From the IMG/VR virus record IMGVR_UViG_3300003267_000070, positions 1 to 59,543 of that record: a DNA stretch of 59,543 bases, one strand, 5' to 3'. The stretch is from a virus. Its lineage: Duplodnaviria > Caudoviricetes. Of the stretch, positions 1 to 59,543 are shown piece by piece (the stretch's first letter is position 1; each line of letters opens with the position of its first letter). A program made the translations under genes and the position numbers. The notes under the pieces are model-generated. The model was not told the origin of the DNA and did no database searches. It worked only from the letters and a program-made list of their open reading frames with translations.

Positions 1-94
1 ACCGCAGCCGCAACCGAGCCCGCGACCGGAGCCAGGGGATGAGCCAGTACCGACCGACCCGGGCGTCCCTGAAACTCCGGGTAAAGGTAAGTAG
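1..94 (+). CDS. 3' part of a 49-aa Pro-rich peptide that begins at 59488 and spans the junction
   Basis: Frame from base 2 reads PQPQPSPRPEPGDEPVPTDPGVPETPGKGK-TAG(92-94), in phase with ATG 59488. Confidence 0.7.
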   Translation, partial: PQPQPSPRPEPGDEPVPTDPGVPETPGKGK

Positions 95-98
95 GCCA

Positions 99-542
99 GT
101 GGCCCAAGTTCGCAATCTATGGCTGGTAACACAACGAAAGTCACTTGAGTCGATTGAGCCTTGGTATTGGTTACGATGGCTGCTACGACGATACTTTAAG
201 TGGCGTGGATTTGCCTGCCGTTCCCATTCGGGAGATTGCGATAAACAGTGCTACGCATCCATTGAATACCGAGGCGTATTTGACGATGAAGCAGAGGCTC
301 GTTGGGCGGCAAGTTGTGACGGTGGTGAGTATAAGCCGATTCCATTCAATGCCGCTTTACCTGAAGAGACGGTCAGCTATTTCGCGGGTGACGTTCCTTT
401 ATCGGAAGCCTCCGCATGGTATCGACGCGGGGTAGCATTACCCTTTGAAACTATCAGCCGCGCAGACCTGAAACGTTTGGAGCGTAAGATTGAAGATGTC
501 GTTGAATGCGCTCAGGGTCAATGTACGTCCAGGGTCGTATGA
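99..542 (+). CDS. Hypothetical protein with Cys cluster (CRSHSGDCDKQC)
   Basis: ORF 39..542; GTG at 99 lies 4 nt after the stop of the junction ORF, so it is the likelier start. Confidence 0.65.
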   Translation: MAQVRNLWLVTQRKSLESIEPWYWLRWLLRRYFKWRGFACRSHSGDCDKQCYASIEYRGVFDDEAEARWAASCDGGEYKPIPFNAALPEETVSYFAGDVPLSEASAWYRRGVALPFETISRADLKRLERKIEDVVECAQGQCTSRVV

Positions 543-545
543 AAC

Positions 546-1007
546 ATGCAGGAACACGCAACCGGCATCCCTCAATGGCTCCAACTTGCCCTCACCAGCC
601 TTGCATCGATTGTTGGAGCGCTAGGTATTGATAGACTCTACAACAATTGGCTGAACCGCAAGAAACCTGCCGCCGACATCCACGTCACCGAAGCTACCGC
701 AACTGAGATTACGGTTCGTTCTACAGCTAGCGCGGGCGATGCGGTGGTGCGATTTATGGATAGGCTGAACGTGGCGCAGGAAACGATTGACCGGCTGCGG
801 TCGGAGCGAGATGCGTGGCAGGATCAATACGACCAAGTGTTCGTGGACAGGGACCGCCTGCTGGTGGAGAACGCGAAGCTGCGAGGGGAGGTTGACCTGT
901 ACGAGAAGGAGATCAGGCGCATGGCGGCAACGTTACATCTGGAAGAAAAGAACTATGACAACACGCAGAATCAAGCGATCCAGAGAACCGATGACACCGA
1001 GTTGTGA
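546..1007 (+). CDS. N-terminal membrane segment + coiled-coil protein (holin/spanin-like candidate)
   Basis: Hydrophobic WLQLALTSLASIVGALGI then heptad-rich charged C-terminus; last gene of the rightward operon. Confidence 0.55.
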   Translation: MQEHATGIPQWLQLALTSLASIVGALGIDRLYNNWLNRKKPAADIHVTEATATEITVRSTASAGDAVVRFMDRLNVAQETIDRLRSERDAWQDQYDQVFVDRDRLLVENAKLRGEVDLYEKEIRRMAATLHLEEKNYDNTQNQAIQRTDDTEL

Positions 1008-22875: not shown

Positions 22876-23196
22876 TTAATCGTCATCCGATCGCGCCTGT
22901 CGAAACGCCTTCATGCACACCGGGCCGATACCTTTAGCCATCGTCTCGGCGCTCTTGATTACATGGCCGCAGTTGAGGCAGCGACGGTAGCGGCGCATGA
23001 AAGCGATAGCGCGAGTAGTTGACATCCGATCTTCGGGATACAAGCGATACACTGCCCCGGTGTCGTACTCGAAGCGGTAGCGAGCGGCGTCTACTAGGCG
23101 CTTGGCGTAAAGTCGCGTGCTGTCACGGTTCATCTTGACGGCGTAGATTTCACCGTTGCGTTCGTAGATGCCGGGTACGAGACCGTTAATGGACAT
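22876..23196 (-). CDS. DUF6011-like zinc-binding protein
   Basis: CLNCGH.I......GIGPVC. Confidence 0.7.
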   Translation of the reverse strand: MSINGLVPGIYERNGEIYAVKMNRDSTRLYAKRLVDAARYRFEYDTGAVYRLYPEDRMSTTRAIAFMRRYRRCLNCGHVIKSAETMAKGIGPVCMKAFRQARSDDD

Positions 23197-23746
23197 TTCG
23201 GGACTCCTTCCGATGTCGATACGCCTCCCCCGCCTGCGACTTCCTCTCCACGGTCACAATCGTGTCGTTGTGCGCGCCGCCGTGAGTGACCAGCAGGATC
23301 TCCAGCATCTCGTAGTTACGCTTCAGGCCGAAGCCCAGGGAGTTCCAGCCGCAACAGATGGCGATACCCCCGGGCTTGAGAACGCGATCAAGTCCATTTT
23401 TGACTAACCGATACAGTCGTGCGCTCTGCGTATCCGACATCGCCGCCCTGCGTCCAATCCCCTGATAGCACTCGGCAATCTGACGGGGTGAGTAGGGTGG
23501 GTCGAACAGGACCGCATCAGCCTGTGTGCCGTTGAGTGACAGCACGAATTCCTCAGCGGGGAGGTGGTACAGAGCACCGGTCGTCGGATTCAGGTCGTTG
23601 GTTACGGTTCCGCGTGTCGAATTACGAGCAAAAGGATCGACGATCACTGTAGCACCCACCAGCCAGCGATCCAGTAGTCGCGCCACCGGAGGCAACGAGA
23701 ACGTCTCGTGATTAGGCATAGCAAACTCACGGCTGAAAGTAATCAT
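23186..23746 (-). CDS. Putative adenine-specific DNA methyltransferase
   Basis: FAMPN.ETF, VDPFA, TNDLNP, LFDPPYS.RQ..ECY, HGG.HNDTI. Confidence 0.8.
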   Translation of the reverse strand: MITFSREFAMPNHETFSLPPVARLLDRWLVGATVIVDPFARNSTRGTVTNDLNPTTGALYHLPAEEFVLSLNGTQADAVLFDPPYSPRQIAECYQGIGRRAAMSDTQSARLYRLVKNGLDRVLKPGGIAICCGWNSLGFGLKRNYEMLEILLVTHGGAHNDTIVTVERKSQAGEAYRHRKESRNVH

Positions 23747-23880
23747 CCCCGTCCCTTTCTGGCCGCCTCCCCCGCCAGCGCCCCGACCGCCCAGAGGCAC
23801 AGGGCGAGGGTGGTGGTGACGGCGAGGGTGATGATGACGAGGATCAGGAGCGCGAGGGTCAGGAGGGTGGTGGCGATCAT
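23743..23880 (-). CDS. 45-aa membrane microprotein (not in ORF track)
   Basis: GGAGG SD; MIATTLLTLALLILVIITLAVTTTLALCLWAVGALAGEAARKGRG; ATGA overlaps on both sides. Confidence 0.65.
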   Translation of the reverse strand: MIATTLLTLALLILVIITLAVTTTLALCLWAVGALAGEAARKGRG

Positions 23881-32614: not shown

Positions 32615-32944
32615 ATGGCGGGTGGTGTTAAAGGAAATCGCGGGGGGCAAAAGGGCCGCAGTGGTCGCAAGTCGCGGGCTGAGGAACTAGGACTGCAATC
32701 CCTGCTTGACTCTGCGTTCACTCAACAAGATCGGCGAAAGGTAATTGAAAGCTTGATTGCGATTGCGAAGGGAAACGACTTCAAGGCCGCCGTCTCCGCT
32801 GCAACGCTGCTTCTTGGTTACACCTACGGCAAACCGACGGAGCGATACGAACTTGGCGGTCCCAACGGTGGTCCAATTCCCCACTCCGTCACCTTCGAGG
32901 TAGTTGATGGTCGTAACTCGACGACAGGTCAGGATTCGGACTAG
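32615..32944 (+). CDS. terS: Terminase small subunit (putative)
   Basis: GG....SGRK N-terminus, GKP...ELGGPNGGPI C-terminus, directly upstream of terL. Confidence 0.7.
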   Translation: MAGGVKGNRGGQKGRSGRKSRAEELGLQSLLDSAFTQQDRRKVIESLIAIAKGNDFKAAVSAATLLLGYTYGKPTERYELGGPNGGPIPHSVTFEVVDGRNSTTGQDSD

Positions 32945-34115
32945 TCGCGTCTTTGACTTCCTGCGACACTCACCCGCCCGCATTTCTTCCCTTCGCGGCG
33001 GCACTCGTTCCGGTAAGACCTACAACGCGCTTTGCTATTGGGTGTGGCGGCTTGGCAACGAGCAAGGCAAGACCCTGACTATCACCCGCCAGACCATGCC
33101 CGCCCTGCGCGCCTCAGCCATGCGGGACTTCTTTGAGATCCTGGACCGTGCGGAGGTGTATGACGTTAACCTGCACAATAAGACTTCCAACGAGTACCAC
33201 CTGAACGGCAACCTCGTTGAGTTCATCGGGCTTAACGAGTCGATGCGCGTGCGAGGCCGTAAGCGTGACTATCTGTTCTTGAACGAGGCAAACGAATGCG
33301 ACATCGAAGCTTTTCGTCAGCTCGCCTTTCGCACCGCAGACAAGATCATCCTTGACTACAATCCCTCCGAGGCGTTCTCCTGGATCTACGACGACGTAGA
33401 AACTCGCGATGACTGCGATCTACTCGTCACCAACTACCTCGATAACCCGTTTCTTGAGGACAGCCTGATTAACGAGATTGAGCGGTTACAGGATGCCGAC
33501 GAGGAATACTGGAAGGTTTATGGTCTTGGTGAAATCGCTCGCGGCAACACGCGAGTATTTACACACTGGCGGTCTATCTCCGACTCCGAGTACCCTTACA
33601 ACAAGGGTGAAGCGGTCTACGGTCTCGACTTTGGCTATAACAACCCTACCGCACTGGTTGAGACTCGTCTGTATGACAATGCACTATACTGGCGAGAGAT
33701 GCTGTATCAGACAAAACTAACGACGGCTGATTTGGTAGAGAAGTTAAAATTATTTCCCGAACTAAAAGCTCGCAAGATCATCGCCGACTCGGCAGAGCCG
33801 AAGACCATCAAGGAGATCGCGCTTGCCGGGTTTCGCATTGAAGGGGCGGAGAAGGGACCGGACTCCATTATTACCACCATCAACTTTGTCAAGTCCAAGC
33901 CGCTATACATCCTGGACTCGGGCGTGAACATCATACGAGAGATCAAGCGTTACAGTTTCAAGACCGATAAGCAAGGGAAGGTGACGGACGAGGTGGTTCC
34001 ATTCGAGAACCATGCGATGGACGCAGGGAGGTACGGTAGTCGTAGCTTCGCTATTCCACCCTGTGACCGCTATTCCGAGTCCGACAGCCAGACTTGGGGC
34101 GGGAAGAGTTACTGA
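32907..34115 (+). CDS. terL: Terminase large subunit (PBSX/Terminase_3 family)
   Basis: GGTRSGKT, LFLNEANE, YNP, YLDNPFL, GLDFGYNNPTA, ADSAEP, NHAMDAGRY. Confidence 0.95.
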   Translation: MVVTRRQVRIRTSRVFDFLRHSPARISSLRGGTRSGKTYNALCYWVWRLGNEQGKTLTITRQTMPALRASAMRDFFEILDRAEVYDVNLHNKTSNEYHLNGNLVEFIGLNESMRVRGRKRDYLFLNEANECDIEAFRQLAFRTADKIILDYNPSEAFSWIYDDVETRDDCDLLVTNYLDNPFLEDSLINEIERLQDADEEYWKVYGLGEIARGNTRVFTHWRSISDSEYPYNKGEAVYGLDFGYNNPTALVETRLYDNALYWREMLYQTKLTTADLVEKLKLFPELKARKIIADSAEPKTIKEIALAGFRIEGAEKGPDSIITTINFVKSKPLYILDSGVNIIREIKRYSFKTDKQGKVTDEVVPFENHAMDAGRYGSRSFAIPPCDRYSESDSQTWGGKSY

Positions 34116-34519: not shown

Positions 34520-34687
34520 ATGAAGCCACGCGTCAAGGATACGCACATCTATTTTCCCGTCAAAGTGCTGGAGCAGTTAAAGAAACTGGCCGCGGTAAAC
34601 CGGCGCACGGTCAGCGCGGAGATTGTGATTGCGGTTGAGAAGCATGTTGAAACAGAGTCACCGAACGGAAAGCGGGTGAGGAAGTGA
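34520..34687 (+). CDS. Arc-like ribbon-helix-helix repressor, leaderless
   Basis: THIYFP..VLEQLKKLA..NRRTVSAEIV.AVE; ATG 8 nt after -10. Confidence 0.8.
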   Translation: MKPRVKDTHIYFPVKVLEQLKKLAAVNRRTVSAEIVIAVEKHVETESPNGKRVRK

Positions 34688-35663
34688 GTGAGAGTAAGGA
34701 AGTAAGTAATAACAACCCTGTCAGCGGTTGCGCGATGATACTCCTACTTGCGATTGTCGTGGCTATGATTGCGGTTGTCGTATCCGAGGAACTCCGGAAG
34801 CGCGATTACTGGATTCAGGATCTCCAGAAGCGGATTGCGGTACTGGAACAGCGGCAGGGAGGTAGATGAAGAAATGAGCGCTGAAGTTGTTGGATTACGT
34901 ATTAAATGTGACACCTTAGAACGCGCCATTACGATTCCCCGTGTCGATTACGCTATCGGTCCAATAGACGTTACTGACTCAAGGGGTAAACCCAAGTATG
35001 TCATTCGTTGCGAGTGTGGAGAGGTACACCAAGTGGCAATGAAAAGAGCCGCAAAACCAACGCGAACTAAGCTATCGACATCGCGCGGGAAGCAGGCGAG
35101 GAAGACGGGATGAATGAGAGGTACGTAACGGTGATTGTAGTTATGTCGGCTCTTGCTGGTCTAGTGATTGGCGTAGGTTCTTGGAACGCCCACTACGGAC
35201 TAGGTGTAGTCCTGGCGTTGGTAACTATCACGATCATCGGCGACGCCGTCTGTGAATCGAATAAGGAGCGCAAGTGAAACTTGAACCCGCTATACAAGAG
35301 GTTGTGGACAATATCCTACTGGAGATTGAAACAGCAAAGATTCGTATTCCCGACAGCGAAGCCGGCGAGTATATTGATCCATGTCACTGGAGCCGTACCG
35401 GCTGGGCCGTACGGAAAGCTAATGGGAGTTGTACCTGTCGGCCTTGTGAACCGAGTGAATCCGGTAAGGAGCGAGGGTTTACCTCTCTTGGTAGTAGTAA
35501 GTCGCGAGATCGTCATGCTCAATATATTCAAGAGCACCCTAAACAACGATGCCTCAAGTGCGGATTGAAACTGGAGCAGCACACGGTTAAAGAATTTCAG
35601 TACTGCGAGTTTGTGTTAGCGGGATCAGGCAGCGAGACCCTGGTAATGAACCGTCCCGACTGA
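34684..35663 (+). other. Accessory ORFs between terL and portal (TM-coil 34684..34869, Cys-containing ~34874..35113, small TM ORF, Cys-rich 35274..35663)
   Basis: ORF track; overlapping starts/stops downstream of the Arc-like gene. Confidence 0.55.
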
Positions 35664-35711: not shown

Positions 35712-37325
35712 GTGGCCGACCCAGTCCTCCTATCTCGCATCACCTCCACCGAAAAGGCGGGTCAACTCCTGCTCAATCGCCGCCCATCAGCCTCCATCTC
35801 CGCTGACAGGTTCTACCACGGCGATCACTTTCAGAACTTTGAGGGCTGGATTGGGGAGCAGCCGCAGCCCGGTACTCCTGAGTATAACGAGGGACGCAGC
35901 AACATCGAGCGCGGCTTCGTTTCCGAGAACGTGATTAAGGAGGTAGTGGATCGGCATCGTTCCGGCTTACTGGGCCGTGAGCCGCTGTGGGGGTTTCTGC
36001 CGTCTGAAGTAACCTCACCTGCAACAGAGAGACGCCGCAAGTTGTTTAGCAAGCTATTCAAACTCGTCAACACAGTCAAGACTACGGTCCAAAGCGTCAC
36101 TCGCACAGGTCAGTTCAAGTTTGCCGACGAGGCCGACGACGCTCTGACCCTCTGGTGGAACAACCGTAATCCGCGTGAGGTGTTGAAGCAGGCGCTAACA
36201 AAAGTCCTGCTTGAGGATCGCGCAGTGCTCCACTTTCACTTCCCGCTGAACCTGCGAGATGTTAACGGTGAGATTGCCCCACAAGCCGACTTAACCTCTG
36301 CGGCCAATATCCCGCGTGTGCAGGTTCTTAGTTCAGACAAAGCGGGCGTGTTCATCGATGTAGACTCGTTGCAGGAGTTCGGCGTCTACTCCTATCAGCG
36401 AACGACAGACGACAAGCGGGTAGTTGAGTTGACATTTGTGCAGGATGGTTTAACTATCTTGCGTGTGTTAGTTGATGGGCAGGATCCACAGGACTTTACC
36501 TTTGAACTTGGCGGTCGTCTTCTCATGCACGAGCTTACCCGCCCCGCACTCATCACCCCACAGGTGATCTCGAACCAGAAGTCTCTCAACCTCGCCCTGA
36601 CTATGATGATGCGGAACGTGAATCTGGCTGGATCGCTGGAGCGGATCATTCTGAACGCTCAGCAGCCTACGCAAATTAAGCGCATTAAGGATTCCAGTGC
36701 GCCGGGTGGTTACCGCGAAGAGGAGGTTAAAGGAAACTTTTGGGTCGGGCCGGGGGCCACTACCGCGCTTAATGGTGTTCTAATCAAAGACAAAAATGGC
36801 GAGATCGTCGGTCGCGCCAACCCCAACATCTCCTACCGTGATCCCGTCAGTGTCGAAACCTTCACCGAAACCCGCGACCAGTTCTACGCCTCCATCCTGG
36901 GCCAGTGTCAGCAACGGCATGCGCTGATCTCGGGTGACGCTGTAGCTTCCGGTCGTAGCCGCAGCGAGGCCCGTGGTGAGTACCGTACCTCCCTTGCCGA
37001 CTCCAAAGACCCGGTTGATGACGCCGGCCGCTGGATACTGGAAACTGAACTACGTCTAGCGGCACAATTCTGCAACCGTACTGGTGACTTCCTTGCCCTT
37101 CGTGCAGACTTTAACTCCATCATTGAGGATGGACCAGTGACGGTTGAAGAGAGGGAGGCGAACCGGGCGGATGTGCAGGCTGGACTACTTAGTAAGGAAA
37201 CAGCTATGAGCCGTAACGGCGTGGAGGATACGCAGGCTGAACTTGAGCGGATTGCGCAGGAACCCAGGCCGGTGATTGATTTAACGAAGCAGGAGCAGGG
37301 GCAGGGAGGCAGACTGGCGGCATGA
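35712..37325 (+). CDS. Portal protein
   Basis: 537 aa after terL; FYHGDH, N.IKEVVDR, SG.SR, GLLSKETAM...G.ED...ELERI..E (SPP1 gp6-like ending). Confidence 0.85.
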   Translation: MADPVLLSRITSTEKAGQLLLNRRPSASISADRFYHGDHFQNFEGWIGEQPQPGTPEYNEGRSNIERGFVSENVIKEVVDRHRSGLLGREPLWGFLPSEVTSPATERRRKLFSKLFKLVNTVKTTVQSVTRTGQFKFADEADDALTLWWNNRNPREVLKQALTKVLLEDRAVLHFHFPLNLRDVNGEIAPQADLTSAANIPRVQVLSSDKAGVFIDVDSLQEFGVYSYQRTTDDKRVVELTFVQDGLTILRVLVDGQDPQDFTFELGGRLLMHELTRPALITPQVISNQKSLNLALTMMMRNVNLAGSLERIILNAQQPTQIKRIKDSSAPGGYREEEVKGNFWVGPGATTALNGVLIKDKNGEIVGRANPNISYRDPVSVETFTETRDQFYASILGQCQQRHALISGDAVASGRSRSEARGEYRTSLADSKDPVDDAGRWILETELRLAAQFCNRTGDFLALRADFNSIIEDGPVTVEEREANRADVQAGLLSKETAMSRNGVEDTQAELERIAQEPRPVIDLTKQEQGQGGRLAA

Positions 37326-40029: not shown

Positions 40030-41157
40030 ATGGACTTCAGTTTTAGCGAAGCACTTGAGAGCCTCGGGCGTAACGCCGGGTTCCGGATAATGAACGAGGC
40101 GCGGCCCGAGTCGGCGTACTTGCTGGAAACCCTCTTGCCGGAAGTGCCTAAGCCCGACTACTTTGTCGAGTCCGCCTACATGACCATCCGTACCATCATG
40201 GCTGGTCTTGTCGGTATGTCGGCTCCCTACCCTCCGGGCGCAGTGGTCGAGGCCAGTAAGTTTCTGGAAAAGACCGCCAAGATCGCCAACCAAGTCTCGC
40301 TTGAGGAAGAGCCCCTGCGACAGATTCAGGAGATGCTCAAGAATCTTGGCTTGACCGGCGACGCCCGCAAGGAGTTCCTGGCCAATGAAGCCCTGAACTT
40401 CATGGAAAAGGTAGTACGCCAGGGTCACTGGGATACCTTCGAGTGGCTGCGGTCGCAATGCCTGTTCACCGGCAAGATTGACTGGACCTTTAACGAGAAG
40501 CATCTTGATATCGACTACGGCGTCCCGGCGACGTTCTTCGGTACACATCGCACCGGCAACGACCGCTACAACGCGGACCACGCCGACAACAAGTTCTGGG
40601 TGGACCACTACACCGCCCTGAAAGCCCTCTACTACAATGTTCGCGCCATCATCGCCCACACGGATACGATCCAGAACATCGTCAACAACGACCGGTTGAA
40701 ACTGGACGTGTCGCAAAACGGGAACGTCTTCACTCTCCGGCGCTACCGCACTCGCGGCAACGGGGAAGTCCTATCCAGCGACTCCCGTGACTCCCTGACC
40801 ATCATCGCCTACGACCTGGAGGGCGAGGTGCTTGACCCGGCCAACACGGCACTCACCAAGCGCATTCAGTTCGCCCCAACCGGCAAGATCCTCTATGTCG
40901 CCAACAACCGGCGCACCGGCTATCGCGTGGGTGAAGGCTCAACACCCGATCCGATCCGTGATCAAGCCCTTGGCTACACGCATATCGCGCCAACGGTGGA
41001 GGGTAATGGTGCGATGGGCCGTTGGGGGAGACTGTACGTACCGGAGGACGCGCAGTGGTCCATCCGCGCGGAGGGAGTGACAAACGGCCTGCCTGTACGT
41101 GAAGACGTGACGGCCACACAGGCTAAGACTTACGTGAACAGTACGGCGCTAAGCTAA
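40030..41157 (+). CDS. Major capsid protein (lambda gpE-like HK97 fold)
   Basis: 375 aa; EWLR.Q.L.TG.I.......IDYGVP; G.P near C-terminus; synteny. Confidence 0.85.
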   Translation: MDFSFSEALESLGRNAGFRIMNEARPESAYLLETLLPEVPKPDYFVESAYMTIRTIMAGLVGMSAPYPPGAVVEASKFLEKTAKIANQVSLEEEPLRQIQEMLKNLGLTGDARKEFLANEALNFMEKVVRQGHWDTFEWLRSQCLFTGKIDWTFNEKHLDIDYGVPATFFGTHRTGNDRYNADHADNKFWVDHYTALKALYYNVRAIIAHTDTIQNIVNNDRLKLDVSQNGNVFTLRRYRTRGNGEVLSSDSRDSLTIIAYDLEGEVLDPANTALTKRIQFAPTGKILYVANNRRTGYRVGEGSTPDPIRDQALGYTHIAPTVEGNGAMGRWGRLYVPEDAQWSIRAEGVTNGLPVREDVTATQAKTYVNSTALS

Positions 41158-45023: not shown

Positions 45024-45216
45024 CTTCACTCTCGCCTGTGCAGCGGTCTTGCAACGTTACGACCTGGAACGCGATGAGGCGCTTCGTAAATGGAATGCCG
45101 CGTGTTGGGGCGCTGAGATCAAAAACGAGCCGGTAAAGCCGAGTAATGGACGCCCGGCAAAGCAGACAATGACTGCGTGGGACATTATGCGCAACCATAA
45201 AAAGGCAAATGGCTGA
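44920..45216 (+). CDS. Frameshift extension of tail chaperone (gpT-like), +1 frame
   Basis: Open +1 frame with no early start codon begins at AAA TTT CGT (44916-44924): FVTERKDEHLLLSLAARHFGLDPWELL...; ends overlapping tape measure start. Confidence 0.7.
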   Translation, partial: FVTERKDEHLLLSLAARHFGLDPWELLRGNPRRLNFTLACAAVLQRYDLERDEALRKWNAACWGAEIKNEPVKPSNGRPAKQTMTAWDIMRNHKKANG

Positions 45217-48200
45217 TTCTCTTCGTCTTCTATTTGAACTAGATGTTGACCCTCGCGCCGGGGTCGCAGGACTTCAGCGTTTTCGGAAAGACATCGCCGC
45301 GACCATTGCCGCAACACGGAAAGCCCTCACCCAATCATTCACCCTCCCGCCTATTAAGCTTCCAACCGTCACCGCTGCCACCGGCGGCCGCGGACAGGCT
45401 GATGCGCATGTTAGAGAATTCCGACGCCTGGAAGCTGAAGCAAAGAGATCAGCTAAAGCCCAAGAGACAGAACAGAAGAGACTTAACAGCGCGGTTCAGT
45501 CCTTACAGCGACAACGCTCCGCCGCGATCATTGCCGGTTGGAAAGCGGAAGAGCGGGCCGCAGCCGCTTCATTAAGAGCGCAGGAGCGAGCGGCACAACA
45601 AGCCAGTCGCGCAATCGTTAAATCGTTTCGTGATATTGGGCGTGGTATCGGGCCGGGACTACAATCAATTGGGCGAACACTCTCGATAGGCGTCACCGCA
45701 CCGCTTCTTGCCCTCGGTGCGGCTTCACTAAAGAGCGCTAAAGACATTGACGCCAACGTGAACACGCTGAAAGCGTTCACCGGCAGTGCTGAAGCGGCGG
45801 AACGTCGGTTAGCGGAACTGATTAAGACTGCTCGGGGTACGCCCGGACTCACAACGAACCTGGCGTTAACACTCGACGCCCAGCTTCGAACCGCTCAGGT
45901 GACGGAAGAAACGATTAACCGCGTACTGCCTGCTATCGGGCGACTAAATGCCGTTTCAAGACTTCCTGATGTCGGCCGCTTTACGCAAAACCTCTTGCAG
46001 CTCGTTACGCAGAACTTCGAGCGGCAGGACCTAAAAGAGCTTGTCGGGCAAAGTCCTATTGCCGGCCAGTTGATCAGAGAGCTATTTAACGTTGATTCGC
46101 CCACAAACACAAAAGCCATCAGGGAGCAGGCGCAGAAACTTGGTCTAACGACTGTCGATTCATTCTTTGCGGCGCTTGCGGAAGCCGCGCAGCGCAACCA
46201 GGGACTCGCGAATGTTACGGAGTCTATCGGCACACGCTTCGAAAAGGCGGTGGACCGGGTAACGGTAGCTCTGAGACCTCTGGGCCTCGCGATCATTAAC
46301 GCGATCGAGCCGTTTATCGAACCCGTAGCTAAACTGATTGAGCGTATCGGTGACGCTTTTAATTCCCTCTCCGCGCCTGTCAAGACAGCCATTATTGTGA
46401 TCGCCGGGATCGCCGCGGCGGTTGGGCCTGTGCTGTTCGTACTGGGGTCGCTTGCCTCTGCGGTTGAAAACGTCATAGCGGCTGTGAGTGTAGTAGGGGC
46501 AGCGATAGCTCTAGTTGGTTTTCCTGAACTGATCTTAGTTATTGGCGGTCTTGTTATTGTGATAGGTGAATGGGTCGCGATCCTTGGGGCGTTAGGACTT
46601 GCGTGGAAGACTAACTTCCTCAACATCCGCGATCTGACCGCGGACGCCGCCAGCGCCGTCCTTCAGGCGTTTAGTCGTATCAAGGCCGTTTTTGATGAAG
46701 CCACACAGCGCATTCTGCCGACTCTTCAGTCGATCACAACTAAGGTGCTTGGGGTAATAACACTCGCATGGGACAAGTACGGCAAGGACATTGTTCGGGT
46801 TGTTGGCGCGTCGTTCAGGTTTATCTCCGGCGTTCTGGAGGTCTTTCTTACTCAGTTCACGAACTTTGTTGACTTACTCCTGAAGCTGATTGACGGAGAT
46901 TTCCGTGGCGCATGGGCGGCGTTCGCTCGCATTCACATCACCGCTTTAGAAGCGTTTCAAAAGTTCCTTGACCAGCTTGGACCGTTGATGATTCGAGCGT
47001 TTGGGCGCTTACACGTCATTATTCTTGCGGAATCCATTCGGCTGGCCCAACTCGGAACGGTTTTAGGCGTCGAGATAGCGGCCGCTATAGCTAAATCGCT
47101 GGTCGCCGCCCACGGAACAGTCCGTGATGCGTTGATCGAGATGCTGGTTCTGGCGGTTGCGGGAATTGACCCAACTACGATTGCCTCAGTGTTTGTAGCG
47201 AAGTTTATTGCCGCGTTAAAAAAGGCGGCGGGTGCGGGCGTAACGATTCCGGTGACCGTGACCCCGGGTCCTACTGTCGGCGCAGACGTCGGGGCCGGCG
47301 CTGGATTATTCAGGCCCAAGAAGCCACCGCCACCGGGTGACAAGGACAAGGGGGCCGATGCGGAAACCCGACGCCGTATCAGACTGCTCGAGTTGGAAGC
47401 GGAACGAGCCGAGGCTATTGCACGCCAACGAATTAGTGCCGAAAACATCTTCTTTGAGCAACGTAAAACCTCACTGAAAGACTTCACGGATTTTCAGATC
47501 AAAGAAGAAGAGATCGTTCTCGAAAAGAAGAAAGCGGTCTTTGCCGCTGAACGAGCCGAAGCGGAGAAACTCACGAAGGGACGTGATCTGGCATTAGGTG
47601 AGATTCGACTAAAAGAACTGAAGGCCGAGCTTGATTTCCAGGATCGGCGCAATCAACTCCTTGCAAATCAGCAACGGGAGGAATTGGAAGCTACTAAAGC
47701 CCATCGACAGGCCGTGCTCGATATCCAAGATGAGGGTGATCGCAAGCGCCTAGAACTTATTGATTCCTACGTCGAGCGTTACCTTATAAGTTACGAAGAG
47801 GCTGAGAAGCGACGGCTGAAGATTGAACAGGATGCGCGTGATCGTCGCCGCGTAGAACTCGAATCCCAACTTAGTGAAGCAGGTCGGAATGTCGAAGAGC
47901 AGCAACGGATAAAAGATGCGATTGCTAAACTTGACGCTGAATCCGCAACCGCCAAGGAAGAAGCGGAGAATCGAAAACGCCGCGCGCTAAGGGCCACTTT
48001 AGAAGCCGAGCGGGACTATTACGATACTCTGCATCGAATCACGCTCAGGGCCGCACAGCTTGCTCGCGAAGCGGCCGGTATCCAGCTTCAACGCCTCATA
48101 GATCGTCTTGGTGATCGTCGCCGCTTTCGCCTGCGAGCCTTGGAACTGGAACGCCGGGCAAATGAAGAGGATCATCGGGAGCGTCTGCGACAAATTGAAC

Positions 48201-49141
48201 AAGAAAAACAGGACGCGGAAAAACGTCTTGAGGGAGTAAGGGACGCTGAAGAGAAGTTGCTTAAGCTCCGAGAGTACTATCGCAAGCTGGAAAAGGCTGA
48301 ACGGAAGCGCCGTGCTGAGGAACAAAAGAAAGAAGATCAAGACGAGAGAAAAGAGCGTGACCCGTTTGATCCGCTCAAAAAGGCATTTGATCGGTTCCGT
48401 GACGCCGTTAAGCATTCCGGGGATTCGATTAAAGAGTCTATTGGATCTATCGTGGCAAGAGTTGGCGAGGCTGCTCAATCGATGGTTGACGCGCTTCGCC
48501 AGGGTATTGTGGCGTGGATTCTTTATAGCGAGTCGCTCGGTAAGGCGCTCAAGGCGGCTTTGGCTCAGCAACTTGCCGTACTGGCCGCCGAGTTCGCCAT
48601 TCAGGCACTCAAACACGGCGCTTACGCTTTAGGTTCACTTGCTTTTGGAAACTTTATCGGAGCGGCGAAGCACGCTGCCGCCGCCGCTGCATTCCTCGCC
48701 GCCGCCGCCGCTACCGGAGTTGCCGCACGGTCTCTTGCCCGAAGCGCGGGCCTGCATAATCGCGGTGGCTCAGCTTCTACCGCATCTGCGGCTGTTGCCG
48801 GCGGTGCGCCGCAAAACCGAGAATTCAACTACGGCGGGCAAGCGGTTGAACCATCATCAGCCGCTGCGCGTGAAGGGTCAGCAGGTGCCGGAGGGCGAAC
48901 GCCGGGGATCTTCGGTGTCGTTGCCGATCTGGCAAGGGAGGTTAAGCAGGCGAGGCTGGATAATGCGGCGTTGACCGCAAAGCTTGACGGCACGCTTTCG
49001 CGGATCGGGTCACTACCGCCGGGAGATGTGGTTACTATCGGAGCGGAGTCAGCGTCAGCAGCTATCGGGGCTGCGACTATTCAACACGGTAAAGAGAATA
49101 ATGATTATTATCGTGAGTTAGCAACTAACATGGGATTTTAA
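45209..49141 (+). CDS. Tape measure protein
   Basis: 1310 aa, Ala/Leu-rich helical, GRTLSIGVTAPL motif, hydrophobic central segment, long coiled coil. Confidence 0.92.
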   Translation: MADSLRLLFELDVDPRAGVAGLQRFRKDIAATIAATRKALTQSFTLPPIKLPTVTAATGGRGQADAHVREFRRLEAEAKRSAKAQETEQKRLNSAVQSLQRQRSAAIIAGWKAEERAAAASLRAQERAAQQASRAIVKSFRDIGRGIGPGLQSIGRTLSIGVTAPLLALGAASLKSAKDIDANVNTLKAFTGSAEAAERRLAELIKTARGTPGLTTNLALTLDAQLRTAQVTEETINRVLPAIGRLNAVSRLPDVGRFTQNLLQLVTQNFERQDLKELVGQSPIAGQLIRELFNVDSPTNTKAIREQAQKLGLTTVDSFFAALAEAAQRNQGLANVTESIGTRFEKAVDRVTVALRPLGLAIINAIEPFIEPVAKLIERIGDAFNSLSAPVKTAIIVIAGIAAAVGPVLFVLGSLASAVENVIAAVSVVGAAIALVGFPELILVIGGLVIVIGEWVAILGALGLAWKTNFLNIRDLTADAASAVLQAFSRIKAVFDEATQRILPTLQSITTKVLGVITLAWDKYGKDIVRVVGASFRFISGVLEVFLTQFTNFVDLLLKLIDGDFRGAWAAFARIHITALEAFQKFLDQLGPLMIRAFGRLHVIILAESIRLAQLGTVLGVEIAAAIAKSLVAAHGTVRDALIEMLVLAVAGIDPTTIASVFVAKFIAALKKAAGAGVTIPVTVTPGPTVGADVGAGAGLFRPKKPPPPGDKDKGADAETRRRIRLLELEAERAEAIARQRISAENIFFEQRKTSLKDFTDFQIKEEEIVLEKKKAVFAAERAEAEKLTKGRDLALGEIRLKELKAELDFQDRRNQLLANQQREELEATKAHRQAVLDIQDEGDRKRLELIDSYVERYLISYEEAEKRRLKIEQDARDRRRVELESQLSEAGRNVEEQQRIKDAIAKLDAESATAKEEAENRKRRALRATLEAERDYYDTLHRITLRAAQLAREAAGIQLQRLIDRLGDRRRFRLRALELERRANEEDHRERLRQIEQEKQDAEKRLEGVRDAEEKLLKLREYYRKLEKAERKRRAEEQKKEDQDERKERDPFDPLKKAFDRFRDAVKHSGDSIKESIGSIVARVGEAAQSMVDALRQGIVAWILYSESLGKALKAALAQQLAVLAAEFAIQALKHGAYALGSLAFGNFIGAAKHAAAAAAFLAAAAATGVAARSLARSAGLHNRGGSASTASAAVAGGAPQNREFNYGGQAVEPSSAAAREGSAGAGGRTPGIFGVVADLAREVKQARLDNAALTAKLDGTLSRIGSLPPGDVVTIGAESASAAIGAATIQHGKENNDYYRELATNMGF

Positions 49142-54604: not shown

Positions 54605-54653
54605 GTCGTAGCCGGTCAACTGCAAACGTTTAGCAACGTTTCCGACATACTCG

Positions 54654-54662
54654 TGTTACACT
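54654..54662 (+). promoter_or_regulatory. Extended -10 element TGTTACACT (copy 3)
   Basis: Intergenic; AAACGTT-TAGC-AACGTTT inverted repeat at 54624-54641. Confidence 0.6.
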
Positions 54663-54682
54663 GGCCCATGGAGGTGCGTCGG

Positions 54683-57334
54683 ATGCGTCTATTATTCTCA
54701 CTGTTGCTGGTGTTATTCGTCTCTGTTATCACCCAAGCCCAGGGGGCCATTGCCGTACCTGCCGGCGGCAACCTTCAGGCAGCAATCAATAACGCGAAGC
54801 GTGGCGACAAAATTGTTCTTGAGGCAGGCGCAACCTACGTAGGCAACTTTAACCTGATCAATAAAGGTCCATGTACGGGAGCCGAATCAGAATTCATCAC
54901 GATCACCACGAGCGATCCGTCCGGTACGCCTCAAGCACTCTTTGGTTATCCGCAGCACGACATACGAATTACCGCGCAGATGGCGGCACGGATGCCGAAG
55001 GTGCTAACACCAAATTCCTCCCCGGCGTTCTGGGTTAATGCGGGCGCTGGTTGTTATCGCCTCAAGGGGCTGGACATCAGCAATACTGATACCAGCGGCA
55101 CGGTGATTCGCTTAATCGGCTTTGGAGAACAGATCCCGCCGGACCGCAACTTGTACCCTTCGCATATTGTCATTGAGCAGAACCTGATTCGTCCCCGTGA
55201 GGAAGATGGCTCGCCCTACAGCACGCAAACACTGCGGCGCTCGGCAGAGAACGGCATCTACGCGGAGGGGACCAATTGGACCATCCAGCAGAACGCGATT
55301 CAGGGATTTGTAAGCGATACCGCCAAGGGTACGGCGTTCGCCGGTATTCTTATCACCACTTGGGCCGACAATTTTAAAATCAGGAACAATCTAGTTGAAG
55401 CGTGGACTTACGCGTGGTTAATCGGTGGAGGCGGCGGGCTGTTCCCGGACCCGTTTCAGACTGCAACCGTATCTCAGTGCACCGCGACGTCCTGCGTCTT
55501 CTCCCATACGAACGGTATCACGGTGGGGATGCCCGTGGCGGTCTTTGTTTACGAGGCCGTGGATAACATTGGTGTTAATCGAAAGTGGTGGGGCAATGCG
55601 TATGTTGCGTCAACTGACGGCCGGATAGTCAACTTCGCTAAGCCGTTATGTACGGCAGGCAATGACCCGCTCGAGAACACTTGCCTTCCTTTTGATCCTT
55701 CCAAGAACCTACGAACTATTCCACTAGACGGCTCGCAGGTGCGATGGGGAGGATTCCAGCCGCAGAACATCACGATTCAACGTAACCTGTTACCCCATCG
55801 ACCCGAGTGGACCAATCTTCTTGGTCAATGTGGGGGTAAGGGTTACTTCGAACTTAAGACCGGGCTGAACATCTTAATTGAGGGTAATCGGTTCAAGGGG
55901 TGTGATGGGTTTACGATCACTGCGCGGAACCAAACAGGCTCAGACCCTTTCAGCGCACTGCACGGCCTCACCGTCAGGAGCAACTATTTAGAGAACGGCA
56001 ACAATAACCTCAACGCCTTCCTGCAAGACAACAGGTTTCTAACAGCACGGAGCCGTAATGTCACCTTCGACAATAATCTCGTCGTGGGCCAGTTCACCAA
56101 CCCCGGACGCACGGACGCCTATATCTCCGTAAACTTCTCCGGTGGTGAGAATACGAGAGTGACACGTAACACGATCTTAGTAGGTAATCAAATCAGCTTC
56201 CAGTCATTTGCTCCGAACACGATGATCGGGCTGGTGATGCAGGACAATATCTTTCGCGCAGCCATCAACGCGTGCTGGGACTACTCAAGCGGGCGTGAGG
56301 TAGGAGCGGCGCTCCCGGTGTGCTGGCCCGGCGCACAGGTAAATGGAAACGTGCTGGTGTCGATTGACCGCTGGAGGCCGGACGAGATCGCACACTGGTG
56401 GACAAACCATCACCCGAACAACACGGTACTGAGTTCAATTAGCGCGGTAGGGTTTATGGCACCGGATGCGGGACTGACAGCAGCGGGGAACTATCGACTG
56501 TTGCCGACCAGTCCATTCGTCGGCAAAGGAGTTAACGACCCTGAGCTAATCGCGGCCCTTGGATACGATCCCAATAGTGGTCAGCCTGCTCCGTCGCCGC
56601 TACCAACGCCCAGTTCCACACCGACACCAACACCTGCACCACTTCCAACACCCGTTCCCAGCCCTTCACCTGCGCCAACGCCCACAGTAACCCCGACACC
56701 GGTGCCTACTCCTACTCCGCAGCCAACCCCGCCGCCATCAGGTCAGGTCGCACTTGAGGGTGTCGTATTCTCGGTACTGGACGGCTCTCGGTTCTCGTTT
56801 ACAAAGGTGGTGCTGACTAAACCGGACGGGACACGACTTGGCGAATTTCCCACAGAGGACGGATCTTACGGGTTTATCGTTCCGGTAGGAAGTTATCAGG
56901 TATTCGTAGAACAGGACGGATACAACACCTCGCCAAGTAGGATTAGCGTGAACGCAACTGAAACCACCGGCGGGCTCAGTATCCTGAACTTCACCATTGG
57001 TCCTGGTTCCTGGTTTAAGCCAGGACCGGAAATGTGCGTACCCGGTCCATGTGCACAACCGAGTTCAAGTCCGACCCCGACACCAACACCGCAGCCTTCG
57101 CCGCAGCCGACACCAGTGCCAAGTCCTAGTCCCGGTCCTACGCCCATGCCGACGCCGACCCCAACTCCGGTGCCGACGCCTTTACCAACGCCGACGCCAA
57201 CGCCGACACCCTCACCACTGCCTAGCCCTACACCTACCCCCTTGCGCTGGTGCGTCAGCGGTGAACGTCCGGGGAATCCACCCGTCTGTCGTTGTCGTAA
57301 CGGCATGCTGGGCAACAGCGGCAAGTGTCGCTGA
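54683..57334 (+). CDS. Secreted right-handed beta-helix (pectin lyase-like fold) protein with Pro/Thr linkers
   Basis: GGAGG SD; signal peptide ending TQA/Q; V.AGGNLQAAIN.A..GD.I.L; Asn-ladder repeats; Ig-like domain between PT linkers; Cys-rich tail. Confidence 0.75.
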   Translation: MRLLFSLLLVLFVSVITQAQGAIAVPAGGNLQAAINNAKRGDKIVLEAGATYVGNFNLINKGPCTGAESEFITITTSDPSGTPQALFGYPQHDIRITAQMAARMPKVLTPNSSPAFWVNAGAGCYRLKGLDISNTDTSGTVIRLIGFGEQIPPDRNLYPSHIVIEQNLIRPREEDGSPYSTQTLRRSAENGIYAEGTNWTIQQNAIQGFVSDTAKGTAFAGILITTWADNFKIRNNLVEAWTYAWLIGGGGGLFPDPFQTATVSQCTATSCVFSHTNGITVGMPVAVFVYEAVDNIGVNRKWWGNAYVASTDGRIVNFAKPLCTAGNDPLENTCLPFDPSKNLRTIPLDGSQVRWGGFQPQNITIQRNLLPHRPEWTNLLGQCGGKGYFELKTGLNILIEGNRFKGCDGFTITARNQTGSDPFSALHGLTVRSNYLENGNNNLNAFLQDNRFLTARSRNVTFDNNLVVGQFTNPGRTDAYISVNFSGGENTRVTRNTILVGNQISFQSFAPNTMIGLVMQDNIFRAAINACWDYSSGREVGAALPVCWPGAQVNGNVLVSIDRWRPDEIAHWWTNHHPNNTVLSSISAVGFMAPDAGLTAAGNYRLLPTSPFVGKGVNDPELIAALGYDPNSGQPAPSPLPTPSSTPTPTPAPLPTPVPSPSPAPTPTVTPTPVPTPTPQPTPPPSGQVALEGVVFSVLDGSRFSFTKVVLTKPDGTRLGEFPTEDGSYGFIVPVGSYQVFVEQDGYNTSPSRISVNATETTGGLSILNFTIGPGSWFKPGPEMCVPGPCAQPSSSPTPTPTPQPSPQPTPVPSPSPGPTPMPTPTPTPVPTPLPTPTPTPTPSPLPSPTPTPLRWCVSGERPGNPPVCRCRNGMLGNSGKCR
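56581..56740 (+). repeat. Pro/Thr/Ser linker repeat 1 (coding)
   Basis: (PT/PS)n. Confidence 0.85.
57055..57240 (+). repeat. Pro/Thr/Ser linker repeat 2 (coding)
   Basis: (PT/PS)n. Confidence 0.85.
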
Positions 57335-57396: not shown

Positions 57397-57900
57397 ATGG
57401 ATCGACGGCAGTTTGCAAAGCGAGGGGTGCTGACGATAGTTGGTCTTGGTTTGACTTCGACCGCCTTCAAGTGCGGTAGTAAGTCGGTTACCTTCTACGT
57501 CTCCACTATCTCGTCGTTCCTTAACGAGCTGGGGACATTGATCCCGGCGCAGGCCGGTTTCATTGGTAAGATCGTCAAAGTAGCAGCGGATTTCGATGCG
57601 GCATATCAGCGTGGCGACTTTGCTAACGCTTCCACCTTCTTCAATACGATGGTCGAGAACATTACGACGCTGACGAACGATCTGGGTGTGACCCTGAGTG
57701 ACCGAGGGAAGATGCTGCTGTCGGTGGTGAGTGTCACGGTGCGGACGATTGCGGTTTTACTAAGAGATGAAGGCGCGACGCAACCGGCGGCGATCAGTTC
57801 GGCCCGCGCTACTTCCCCCGCCGCATCCAAGGCGATTGGTGCGATCCGAACACTGGCGGCGGGAGCGGGTGAGACGTTCGCGGCAACCAAACTCAACTAA
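57397..57900 (+). CDS. Twin-arginine (Tat) signal protein, possibly lipoprotein, helical
   Basis: AAAGGA SD; MDRRQFAK + hydrophobic stretch + Cys. Confidence 0.65.
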   Translation: MDRRQFAKRGVLTIVGLGLTSTAFKCGSKSVTFYVSTISSFLNELGTLIPAQAGFIGKIVKVAADFDAAYQRGDFANASTFFNTMVENITTLTNDLGVTLSDRGKMLLSVVSVTVRTIAVLLRDEGATQPAAISSARATSPAASKAIGAIRTLAAGAGETFAATKLN

Positions 57901-57947
57901 GCCCCATGTGCTGGTCTACTCTCCGGCGCTGGTTACGAGGTAAGCAA

Positions 57948-58214
57948 ATGGCGCGTTTTACAATGGACCCCGATCAATTCGTCCGGCTGGAGCAAAGACT
58001 GGCCGAGTCTCAGGTGGCGGTGGATCGGCTAACCGAGACGGTAATGAAGTCGTCTCAGGACACGAGTAAGTGGCTGGCCCTGCTGGTCCAGTCGTTAAGT
58101 GACGACGCGGACAATCCAACACAGGAACAGATTGATGAACTAGCAGCGCAAATTAACGCTTCGTCCGATACGACGGAGCAGGCGGTTAACGAGCAAAACG
58201 AAGGAGGTCAATAA
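57948..58214 (+). CDS. Acidic coiled-coil hypothetical protein
   Basis: GAGG SD before ATG 57948; heptad pattern. Confidence 0.6.
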   Translation: MARFTMDPDQFVRLEQRLAESQVAVDRLTETVMKSSQDTSKWLALLVQSLSDDADNPTQEQIDELAAQINASSDTTEQAVNEQNEGGQ

Positions 58215-58474
58215 TGGCAGTTGATTTAACGGGACTTAGAGATGCGGTGGCGCGTAATAATACGGTTGATGCTTCCGCGGTGGAGTTGATTCGAGGTATT
58301 GCAAGGAGAATCGAGGAAGCGATTGCAGCGGATGACATTGGCGATGCAGCGAATATCAATGCGCTGGTGACGGAATTAAACTCCTCCACTGATAGCCTTG
58401 CGGGAGCGGTTACAGAGGGTACGCCAACCTCAGGCGGTGGCGAAGGCGGCGGCACCGCGGAACCAACGGCTTAA
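58214..58474 (+). CDS. Ala-rich helical phage protein of unknown function
   Basis: AAGGAGG SD; L..L...VA.N.TV.ASAV.LI.GIA.......L...L......LA.AV...TP. Confidence 0.7.
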   Translation: MAVDLTGLRDAVARNNTVDASAVELIRGIARRIEEAIAADDIGDAANINALVTELNSSTDSLAGAVTEGTPTSGGGEGGGTAEPTA

Positions 58475-58559
58475 CTCGATACCTCGCGGTGCCGCCGCAG
58501 TAGCCCGGGTTGACGCTGGGGAGACACGTCGATCCGGCAGGCGGGGCGGCACCGCAGGT
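58446..58559 (+). promoter_or_regulatory. Mutually exclusive RNA stems (attenuator/switch-like) upstream of the PAS gene
   Basis: 58485-58498 pairs either with 58446-58459 (14 bp) or with 58545-58555 (11 bp); inner 11-bp stem 58505-58537. Confidence 0.6.
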
Positions 58560-58581
58560 CAATCAGCAACCCTACCTCTAA

Positions 58582-59100
58582 ATGTCTGATTATCCTTACG
58601 ATTTATTCAACCTGATTGCCAATATCGCCACTGTCGCGGGCGTGGTAGTAGCACTCTATATCCTTGTAAGTAATCGCCGGATTACGATCAACGTTCGTCG
58701 TATTGCTGAACAGTTGGCCCAAGTCATCGCCCCGAAGACGGGGATTGAATCCTACCTGAACCTGTGCGCGCAGGTAGTGGACAGTGACCCGGACGGAACC
58801 TGCGTTGTCACCGACCAGGGGAAGATCGTGCTGGTCAACAGGAAGATGGAGGACATCTCCGGCTATCACCGCAGTGAGTTGATGGGCCAGCCGGTGGAGA
58901 TTCTCGTGCCGCTGGAATCGCGCAGGGCGCATACGACCGATCGAGAGAACTATATAGACCAGCCCTCCCTGCGACCAATGCGCGGGTTGCAACTGCGGCA
59001 CAAGCGTGGGCGCATTGTCCCCGTGGAGATCTGGCTGAATAACTTTAAGGATTCGTCGGGTGGGTTTACTATAGCCAAGGTTCGCGTACCGGAACGCTAG
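58582..59100 (+). CDS. Single-TM protein with one C-terminal PAS domain and no output domain
   Basis: TM IATVAGVVVALYILV; PDG..V....G.IVLVN...E..SGY...ELMGQPVEILVP; RH..G..VPVEI.L. Confidence 0.88.
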   Translation: MSDYPYDLFNLIANIATVAGVVVALYILVSNRRITINVRRIAEQLAQVIAPKTGIESYLNLCAQVVDSDPDGTCVVTDQGKIVLVNRKMEDISGYHRSELMGQPVEILVPLESRRAHTTDRENYIDQPSLRPMRGLQLRHKRGRIVPVEIWLNNFKDSSGGFTIAKVRVPER

Positions 59101-59463
59101 ATGAATCGCGAGCAAATTTTCCAGGCGCTCCTGATTGCCGCCATCATAGCGCTGGTTAAATTCATCCGCGATGTCATCGTGCTACAAACACAGGTCAAGC
59201 CCTTACTGGAGTGGTGGGCAAAGACTTCGATGGACGCGCTGAAGATAGCGACGAACCCGACCAGTGAGCGACTCGCTGAGTTGGCCGATAAGTATATTGC
59301 GCAGGTGACGGGGAAGAGTAAGGAGCGGATGTCGGCGACGGAGAAGCAGGAATTAATCGACGGGTTGCGACGGATACTACATGACGGGGAAGTGAGCGCG
59401 GCCAAGCGCCAGTCGGCGTCGATGTCGCTCAGGTTTATACAGTCGTGTGAGAGATCGCAGTAG
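59101..59463 (+). CDS. N-terminal TM helical protein (holin/antiholin-like candidate)
   Basis: IFQALLIAAIIALVKFI; abuts PAS gene stop. Confidence 0.55.
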   Translation: MNREQIFQALLIAAIIALVKFIRDVIVLQTQVKPLLEWWAKTSMDALKIATNPTSERLAELADKYIAQVTGKSKERMSATEKQELIDGLRRILHDGEVSAAKRQSASMSLRFIQSCERSQ

Positions 59464-59487: not shown

Positions 59488-59543
59488 ATGGCAAGACAAG
59501 ATGAACCACGGAACCCGCAACAGCCGACTAAGCCGAGCCCGGC
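59488..59543 (+). CDS. 5' part of the 49-aa Pro-rich peptide continuing at base 1
   Basis: MARQDEPRNPQQPTKPSP + GC|A junction codon. Confidence 0.7.
   Translation, partial: MARQDEPRNPQQPTKPSP

Follow-up and report, generated by a model that had tools for sequence, protein, structure and literature searches.

The window, a stretch of 59,543 nucleotides that makes up the whole of virus record IMGVR_UViG_3300003267_000070 (Duplodnaviria; Caudoviricetes), is a tailed-phage genome, and at the distal end of its late strand lie two adjoining genes for small membrane proteins. The first protein, here called TM-PAS, consists of a transmembrane (TM) helix and a stand-alone PAS domain that sequence profiles and a structure model assign to the heme-binding class of DosP, FixL and FG214. 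The second, its partner, is the obligate neighbour of TM-PAS. We tentatively read the two as a conserved sensor module of an uncultured tailed-phage lineage without a recognisable integrase, in which a heme sensor and a co-translated partner would act on a late step at the inner membrane, most likely the timing of lysis. Taken as a whole, this reading is plausible rather than probable, and its parts differ in strength. An earlier note on this DNA had proposed a signal-gated holin/antiholin pair. The stand-alone, membrane-anchored, heme-type PAS protein and its obligatory membrane neighbour are borne out; the holin/antiholin reading is not. The features of the pair are as follows.

58582..59100, plus strand: TM-PAS gene, 172 amino acids (aa), ATG start (open reading frame intact, family scans, alignment, AlphaFold2 model)
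58612-58668, plus strand: N-terminal anchor of TM-PAS, residues 11-29
Residues 30-67 of TM-PAS, plus strand: helical linker and conserved N-cap
58771-59085, plus strand: PAS core of TM-PAS, residues 64-168
58930-58932, plus strand: His117 codon of TM-PAS
58978-58983, plus strand: Met133-Arg134 codons of TM-PAS
59101..59463, plus strand: partner gene, 120 aa, ATG start; N-terminal TM helix, then a helical bundle; matches no known family
59128-59184, plus strand: N-terminal TM helix of the partner, residues 10-28

TM-PAS has a single hydrophobic segment, with a Kyte-Doolittle 19-residue peak of 2.48 at residues 11-29, and a single PAS domain. The domain matches Pfam PAS (PF00989) at E 1.1e-11 over residues 64-162, with 45.2 bits against a cut-off of 22.6, as well as PAS_9 (PF13426; 35.1 bits, cut-off 27), PAS_4 (PF08448; 33 bits, cut-off 23.1) and TIGR00229 (E 5.5e-16; 58.8 bits, cut-off 22.9). 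Because it stops about 4 residues before the C terminus, there is no room for an output domain. The output domains HisKA and HATPase_c are absent from TM-PAS in Pfam. They are also absent from the 79 open reading frames (ORFs) of the window covered by each of the Pfam and PHROGs scans, from which ORFs below about 90 aa were mostly left out. Nor does Pfam recognise a Response_reg or GGDEF domain, or any kinase or cyclase, among these ORFs. The TAG stop codon of TM-PAS occupies 59098-59100, and the ATG of the partner follows directly at 59101. The earlier description of a 172-aa protein with one TM helix, one PAS domain and no output, abutting a second single-TM protein in a genome without a response regulator, is accurate on every point.

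An alignment of 39 family members has 36 invariant columns, which include Cys62, Cys74, His96, His117, Arg121, Arg131, Met133, Arg134 and His140. Asn10 and Asn14, within the TM helix, are also invariant, and the N-cap is highly conserved. The AlphaFold2 model built from this alignment (predicted local distance difference test, pLDDT, 83) starts with a long helix (residues 4-49), followed by an N-cap helix and a PAS core of the standard kind. Its strands at residues 72-77, 81-85, 133-139, 145-157 and 160-168, with helices between them, form the five-stranded antiparallel sheet with flanking helices that is typical of PAS. When the model was compared with the PDB by Foldseek, 491 of the 500 matches counted had E≤1e-3, and the roughly 40 listed are all PAS or PAS-containing structures.

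What might such a domain sense? In bacteria, heme PAS sensors form the input side of kinases, phosphodiesterases and transcription factors, and it is to these that TM-PAS is closest. When the profile of the alignment was run against PDB sequences, the heme domain of DosP (also EcDOS; PAS-A, PDB 1V9Y/1VB6/1S66 and 9CDR) came first at E 4.8e-12 to 1.4e-10, followed by the heme PAS of FG214 (PDB 10jx) at E 3.2e-10 and by FixL of Rhizobium and Bradyrhizobium (PDB 1D06, 1DRM) at E 5.6e-8 to about 1e-4. The first non-heme chain appears at E 1.7e-4, with LOV and other PAS domains from there on. The fold comparison agrees, in that ranks 1-20 are all heme PAS domains from FG214 (top match, E 1.6e-9), FixL (rank 2, E 3e-9) and DosP; a DosP entry labelled R97A is among the matches.

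The residues expected at the heme site are kept as well. His117, on the F-alpha helix and invariant in 39 of 39 sequences, aligns with DosP residue 77, which we take to be the proximal heme ligand. The His that the earlier note placed at the proximal position of FixL-type domains is supported through DosP; its equivalence to the FixL ligand rests on that alignment together with textbook knowledge. The invariant Met133 and Arg134 fall on DosP residues 95 and 97, with one DosP residue inserted between them, in a loop where the register is less certain. A title cited by a recent preprint (10.64898/2026.03.15.711900) names Met95 and Arg97 of DosP as residues on the distal side of the heme. Even the divergent member at locus L027, which loses both Cys, His96 and Arg121 and keeps 24 of the 36 invariant columns, retains His117, Arg131, Met133, Arg134, Gly135 and His140. 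On these sequence and model grounds, we consider that TM-PAS probably binds heme.

The three reference proteins resemble TM-PAS in the sensor domain and differ from it elsewhere. DosP is a soluble cyclic di-GMP phosphodiesterase of 799 aa with the architecture PAS-PAS-GGDEF-EAL, whereas the phage protein is a membrane-anchored 172 aa, has no enzyme domain and comes with a separate partner; identity is about 21-23%. FG214 is a one-component regulator of Fimbriimonas ginsengisoli in which, according to the same preprint (10.64898/2026.03.15.711900), His156 is the proximal ligand and Met172, at +16, an alternative distal one. The spacing from His117 to Met133 in the phage family is likewise +16. 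FG214 differs in carrying a LuxR-type helix-turn-helix output, while the phage protein has neither a helix-turn-helix nor another DNA-binding part. It also differs in its mainly bis-His ligation through distal His175, as that source describes it; in the phage family the residue that corresponds to His175, at +19, is Leu. FixL, for its part, has a histidine-kinase output and, in the same account, a five-coordinate heme without a distal Met.

The partner is also a protein with a single hydrophobic segment (Kyte-Doolittle 19-residue peak 2.45, residues 10-28). Its family is large, with 169 relatives at E≤1e-3 among 177 candidates in the searched range of 66-210 aa; those listed are 119-156 aa long, and none has a Pfam domain. 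The alignment has 29 invariant columns, and the TM helix carries a nearly invariant Ala at positions i and i+4. The AlphaFold2 model (pLDDT 83) consists of a long helix at residues 3-51 and three shorter ones. Foldseek found no match to it at E≤1e-3, the best VIA-align score (Z 6.7) went to helical bundles of generic or designed type and is uninformative, PDB sequences gave nothing better than E 0.15, and the Atlas held no look-alike. No longer or fused form of the partner turned up among 8000 scored candidates, though this is weak evidence.

How constant is the pairing? In all eight distinct contigs with DNA sequence to inspect (the window, L001-L006 and L027), the partner directly follows TM-PAS, either abutting it or overlapping it by 4-16 nt. 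Because its start abuts or overlaps the TM-PAS stop, the partner appears to be translationally coupled to TM-PAS. A proxy points the same way among the relatives listed: at least 50 of 119 TM-PAS relatives share the exact size of their longest contig with a listed partner relative, a count that becomes at least 27 of 45 for contigs of 5 kb or more and at least 11 of 15 for contigs of 30 kb or more.

The family to which these contigs belong is sizeable and uniform. A word-indexed search with TM-PAS returned 135 proteins at E≤1e-3 among 209 candidates, and the 119 relatives listed are 157-202 aa long and 50-66% identical. In an exhaustive search of representatives, full-length matches among the best 150 were confined to short proteins (182, 170 and 121 aa), the other 147 matching the PAS core alone. 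In IMG/VR, a scan with the single protein found nothing, a scan with the alignment found five loci (L001-L005), and the partner alignment added L027. A metagenome scan yielded L006 and L007 as the only family members, the latter being the same contig as L002. L008-L013 were rejected as members, being ordinary PAS matches with 25-43% identity over part of the query.

Both genes are under purifying selection. The ratio of nonsynonymous to synonymous substitution rates (dN/dS) for TM-PAS is 0.026-0.066 in the 9 of 10 L001-L005 pairs in which dS is unsaturated; dS is saturated in the remaining pair and in all 5 pairs with the window. The partner gives 0.056-0.22 in 15 of 21 pairs. Between the window and its relatives, TM-PAS and the partner are 50-64% identical, and the few other neighbours that match are 27-36% identical. 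The pair reaches 90-97% identity in phages that have head genes from different PHROGs. For example, TM-PAS is 97% identical in the complete relatives G002 and G004, yet the major capsid protein is phrog_3990 in G002 and phrog_10 in G004. Such conservation in differing surroundings fits a mobile accessory module under strong constraint.

Where do the soluble parts of the two proteins reside? Lys and Arg are more numerous in the 15 residues after the TM helix than in the stretch before it in 39 of 39 TM-PAS and 35 of 35 partner sequences, the means after and before being 3.05 and 0.0 for TM-PAS and 3.14 and 0.23 for the partner. By the positive-inside rule, both proteins are therefore oriented N-out/C-in, with their globular parts predicted to lie in the cytoplasm. 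This placement suits a PAS domain with b-type heme.

Upstream of the TM-PAS gene, the 107-nt gap that separates it from the preceding gene is largely taken up by a long, imperfect hairpin without a U-tract (58481..58559, plus strand). The RNA fold of 58472-58590 has an energy of -58.3 kcal/mol (z -4.59), a stability that none of 200 shuffled sequences reached, and the hairpin may be a processing, stability or attenuation element. The corresponding gap in L003 lacks a comparable fold signal (z -1.10). A consensus scan for a promoter or terminator upstream of the gene found none. Three of the related loci share a conserved intergenic region upstream of TM-PAS that the window does not have (L003 9788-9990, L004 2320-2555, L005 9640-10000). 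Within this region, an AT-rich word of 11-12 nt occurs twice in tandem and forms a perfect short hairpin; the region looks like an operator or promoter element.

How might the sensor and its partner work together? TM-PAS would be bitopic, with its N-terminal helix, including the two invariant Asn, anchoring it in the inner membrane. The PAS domain would face the cytoplasm and could hold a b-type heme between His117 on the proximal and Met133 on the distal side, Arg134 lying next to the latter. The ligation of the heme might then change with O2, with another gas or with the redox state. The partner, with an N-out/C-in anchor and a small helical bundle predicted to be cytoplasmic, would receive the state of the sensor by direct contact at the inner membrane face, and the pair would tune a late, membrane-based step of infection. 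Of the candidate steps, lysis timing is the likeliest because the cassette sits on the late strand and adjoins lysis genes in some relatives. A late membrane event of this kind is a possible output, though not one that we would call likely, and it is the most conditional part of the scheme.

As mentioned, the pair does not stand alone. It forms part of a cassette whose remaining members in the window are these.

57397..57900, plus strand: predicted exported lipoprotein (twin-Arg-like signal and Cys, read from the sequence), first gene of the cassette
57906-58214 and 58214-58474, plus strand: two small acidic helical proteins; no family match above cut-off (Pfam, PHROGs)
59488..59543, plus strand: 5' part of a Pro-rich ORF of 49 aa, open when the two parts are joined
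1..94, plus strand: 3' part of the Pro-rich ORF, open in the joined reading, stop at 92-94
39..542, plus strand: 167-aa protein, member of the syntenic cassette; no family match
546..1007, plus strand: 153-aa protein with a hydrophobic segment at its N terminus and a coiled coil after it; its gene ends the rightward block

This syntenic block opens with the lipoprotein and the two small helical proteins, continues with TM-PAS and its partner, and closes with the Pro-rich ORF, then a protein of about 165 aa and finally one with a TM helix and a coiled coil. It is full or partial in the window, L003, L005 and L027, and partial in L001, L002, L004 and L006. The ends of the window are contiguous: the Pro-rich ORF reads from 59488 through the end to 94 and aligns, conserved C-terminal motif included, with the ORF in the same position of L006 (926-1068). 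Since an ORF conserved in L006 bridges its ends, the record is circularly closed or permuted despite its label "linear", and the genes at 39-542 and 546-1007 are thereby the downstream neighbours of the pair.

To briefly describe the other members, the lipoprotein shares 76 of 167 residues with the protein in the same position of L027 (5986-6486) and has further counterparts in L003 (8745-9263) and L005 (8600-9118). It has no family match in Pfam, PHROGs, NCBIfam or PADLOC, and its Atlas relatives are virus-only clusters of unknown function with 112, 63 and 86 members. The idea that it is a hidden exported endolysin was rejected on the strength of these clusters, of structure matches with a TM score of at most 0.54 and of PDB matches that look like chance. 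The second small helical protein is 36% identical to the ORFs in the same position of L003 and L005. The 167-aa protein weakly resembles its positional counterparts in L002, L004 and L005 (26-27% identity, with E 3e-5 to 1e-4 against a database of 7 proteins). The 153-aa protein is 27-31% identical to those in L001, L002, L004 and L005 and has weak PHROG matches only, including "membrane protein" phrog_9090 at E 2.4e-4.

In the window, the cassette follows the tail genes in their orientation, and in the window and L001-L005 the block closes the rightward late strand, with leftward replication genes after it. Two relatives bring the pair close to lysis genes. In L002, a set of ORFs takes the place of the upstream part of the block. 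The first of them encodes an endolysin (phrog_181, E 1.7e-25); it lies about 2 kb upstream of the pair and is separated from it by four ORFs. In L005, a canonical holin (phrog_1299, E 4.4e-5) lies 1.4 kb upstream of the pair, before the lipoprotein.

Several observations weigh against a heme sensor that times lysis. (i) The partner is without an informative relative in sequence or fold. (ii) The window TM-PAS has Asp three residues after His117, where most family members have His. (iii) The same His is present in 471 of 559 PAS domains of cellular kinases and the same Met in 355 of 559; either the heme PAS class is large, or these residues are kept for another reason. (iv) A lysis gene lies near the pair, within about 3 kb upstream, in only 2 of the 6 contigs scanned for it (the window and L001-L005). 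The PHROGs scan of the window recognised no gene of the lysis category, be it holin, endolysin or spanin, so that the "holin position" of the earlier note is an interpretation. No homologue of the L002-type endolysin exists in the window or in the relatives G001-G004, no PHROG endolysin was found among the scanned ORFs of 110 aa or more of the complete relatives G002-G004, and 128 further ORFs of G002-G004 yielded no lysis-category gene at E≤1e-5 in PHROGs. (v) L027 has the cassette between genes of early type on one side and a beta-helix protein on the other, an order unlike that of the window. The link of the pair to lysis is accordingly weak. PHROGs and Pfam show no endolysin in the window and three complete relatives, and one in L002 only. 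This lineage probably has a lytic enzyme of a kind not yet described.

Could the pair serve some other purpose? The best-surviving alternative, possible though leaning to the unlikely side, is a membrane module with a different output and perhaps a different ligand or none. Candidate outputs are superinfection exclusion, control of host respiration or energy state, and the organisation of a membrane-bound late process, with PAS acting as a protein-interaction domain or binding a non-heme ligand. The setting of the pair speaks for it: a syntenic cassette of exported and membrane proteins of unknown function that moves as a unit (window, L003, L005, L027), which in the window includes no recognised lysis gene. 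The near-identity of the pair across phages with different head-gene PHROGs also fits an accessory module. However, the closeness of TM-PAS to heme PAS domains in sequence and fold, with its conserved residues at the ligand positions, argues for a heme cofactor, and no defence or exclusion family matches. At E≤0.01, PADLOC had nothing for TM-PAS, the partner and four of the five other cassette proteins, and the remaining match was at chance level (E 0.0096).

A second alternative, that of the earlier note, is that the two proteins are themselves the holin and antiholin, one making the lethal hole and the PAS domain gating it. Both are small bitopic proteins at the distal end of the late strand, where PHROGs recognises no other holin in the 79 ORFs of the window, and lysis genes are close by in L002 and L005. 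The invariant Asn pair in the sensor TM helix and the Ala at i and i+4 in that of the partner would fit helix-helix packing. Nevertheless, neither protein matches a holin family in Pfam, PHROGs or NCBIfam, and in L005, where a canonical holin is encoded separately ahead of the pair, the two proteins are not required in that role. A holin of 172 aa that includes a folded cofactor domain would also be unusual. A known system to compare is holin T of phage T4 with its antiholins RI and RIII. There, too, lysis is timed by a sensory partner in the proposed manner, and holin T combines one TM helix with a globular domain. RI meets holin T in the periplasm (PMC8385771, PMC11413866), whereas the globular domains of TM-PAS and its partner are predicted to be cytoplasmic, and PHROGs and NCBIfam show no sequence or family relation. 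We regard a holin/antiholin pair as improbable.

A third alternative, which we also think has little chance of being right, is a decoy: the stand-alone PAS domain would form heterodimers with multi-PAS histidine kinases of the host and block or bias them. The closest relatives outside the family are indeed cellular multi-PAS kinases, 35-47% identical over the PAS core. Some carry up to 12 such repeats, HisKA/HATPase_c is present in 4 of 7 checked, and two are named as proteins of Chloroflexota and Actinomycetes metagenome-assembled genomes. The N-cap, a usual dimer surface of PAS domains, is highly conserved in TM-PAS. A decoy, however, needs neither a membrane anchor nor an obligatory co-translated partner, both of which are kept in 8 of 8 contigs, and the invariant Cys62, Cys74, His96 and His140 are peculiar to the phage family, the cellular domains having none of them. 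Finally, a decaying, functionless fragment of a captured host sensor kinase, suggested by the resemblance of the PAS core to kinase repeats, can be dismissed in view of at least 135 full-length, stand-alone relatives of uniform size, the family-specific invariant residues, the low dN/dS of TM-PAS given above and an ORF intact in 8 of 8 contigs.

The genome around the cassette is that of a tailed phage. The record is one contig with a CheckV completeness of 98%, and family scans place its main genes as follows.

32904-34115, plus strand: large terminase
40030-41157, plus strand: major head protein
45209-49141, plus strand: tape measure protein
Up to 57334, plus strand: large tail and fibre proteins
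About 1.7-25.7 kb, mostly minus strand: replication and recombination genes
21502-22761, plus strand: D5-type primase gene
35712-37325: 537-aa ORF, portal by position only, without a family match

No integrase-category PHROG was found in the 79 window ORFs or in 223 scanned ORFs of relatives. GenBank phages gave no tblastn match to TM-PAS at E≤1e-3 and none to the 537-aa ORF, and their large terminases are at most 37% identical; these searches thus gave neither a cultured relative nor a host for the phage. GTDB genome contigs yielded no prophage copy either, as none of 14 pattern matches in them was confirmed. A search of sequencing runs located the DNA in one run, a root metagenome from which the record may derive, and no RNA run was listed.

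Some further features of the genome may be recorded. The early region has three DNA methyltransferase-like genes (4972-5481, 16945-17745 and 23186-23911; Dam-like, D12 class and phrog_11619) and two HNH endonucleases. On the late strand, between the terminase and the 537-aa ORF, two small ORFs encode proteins of 55 aa with two hydrophobic segments (35110-35277) and of 61 aa with one (34684-34869); they are the only other membrane candidates of holin size on that strand, and neither matches NCBIfam. The 893-aa protein at 54653-57334 begins with a hydrophobic segment resembling a signal, has a right-handed beta-helix, a CarboxypepD_reg-like domain and long linkers rich in Pro and Thr, and ends in a Cys-rich C terminus. 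This is unusual for a tail fibre, and the protein may be a depolymerase. Its relative in L027 (9660-11813) lies downstream of the cassette, versus upstream in the window.

Have phages been seen to use sensors of this kind before? The full-text literature yielded no description of a stand-alone, membrane-anchored phage heme PAS protein with a dedicated partner. The nearest case is VqmA of vibriophage VP882, a phage-encoded PAS receptor that reads a chemical cue (PMC8284805). VqmA is, by contrast, a soluble transcription factor that binds a quorum-sensing autoinducer, and it is not known to have heme-type residues, a membrane anchor or a partner gene.

Overall, the source of the window is an uncultured phage of soil or root that may read the oxygen or redox state of its host late in infection. 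If TM-PAS binds heme, phages of soil and root habitats would sense oxygen or redox state directly, and the pair would offer a compact two-protein system for studying how a PAS domain passes its signal to a separate membrane protein. The full proposal, in which a heme-based gas or redox sensor of these phages acts through its membrane partner and makes lysis, or its timing, depend on the oxygen supply or respiratory state of the host, is a rather doubtful one at present. Were lysis gating to prove true, the pair would be a virus-encoded, cofactor-based environmental sensor by which phages of oxic-anoxic soil and root habitats gate the final step of lytic infection, and the partner would represent a new class of signal-receiving membrane protein.

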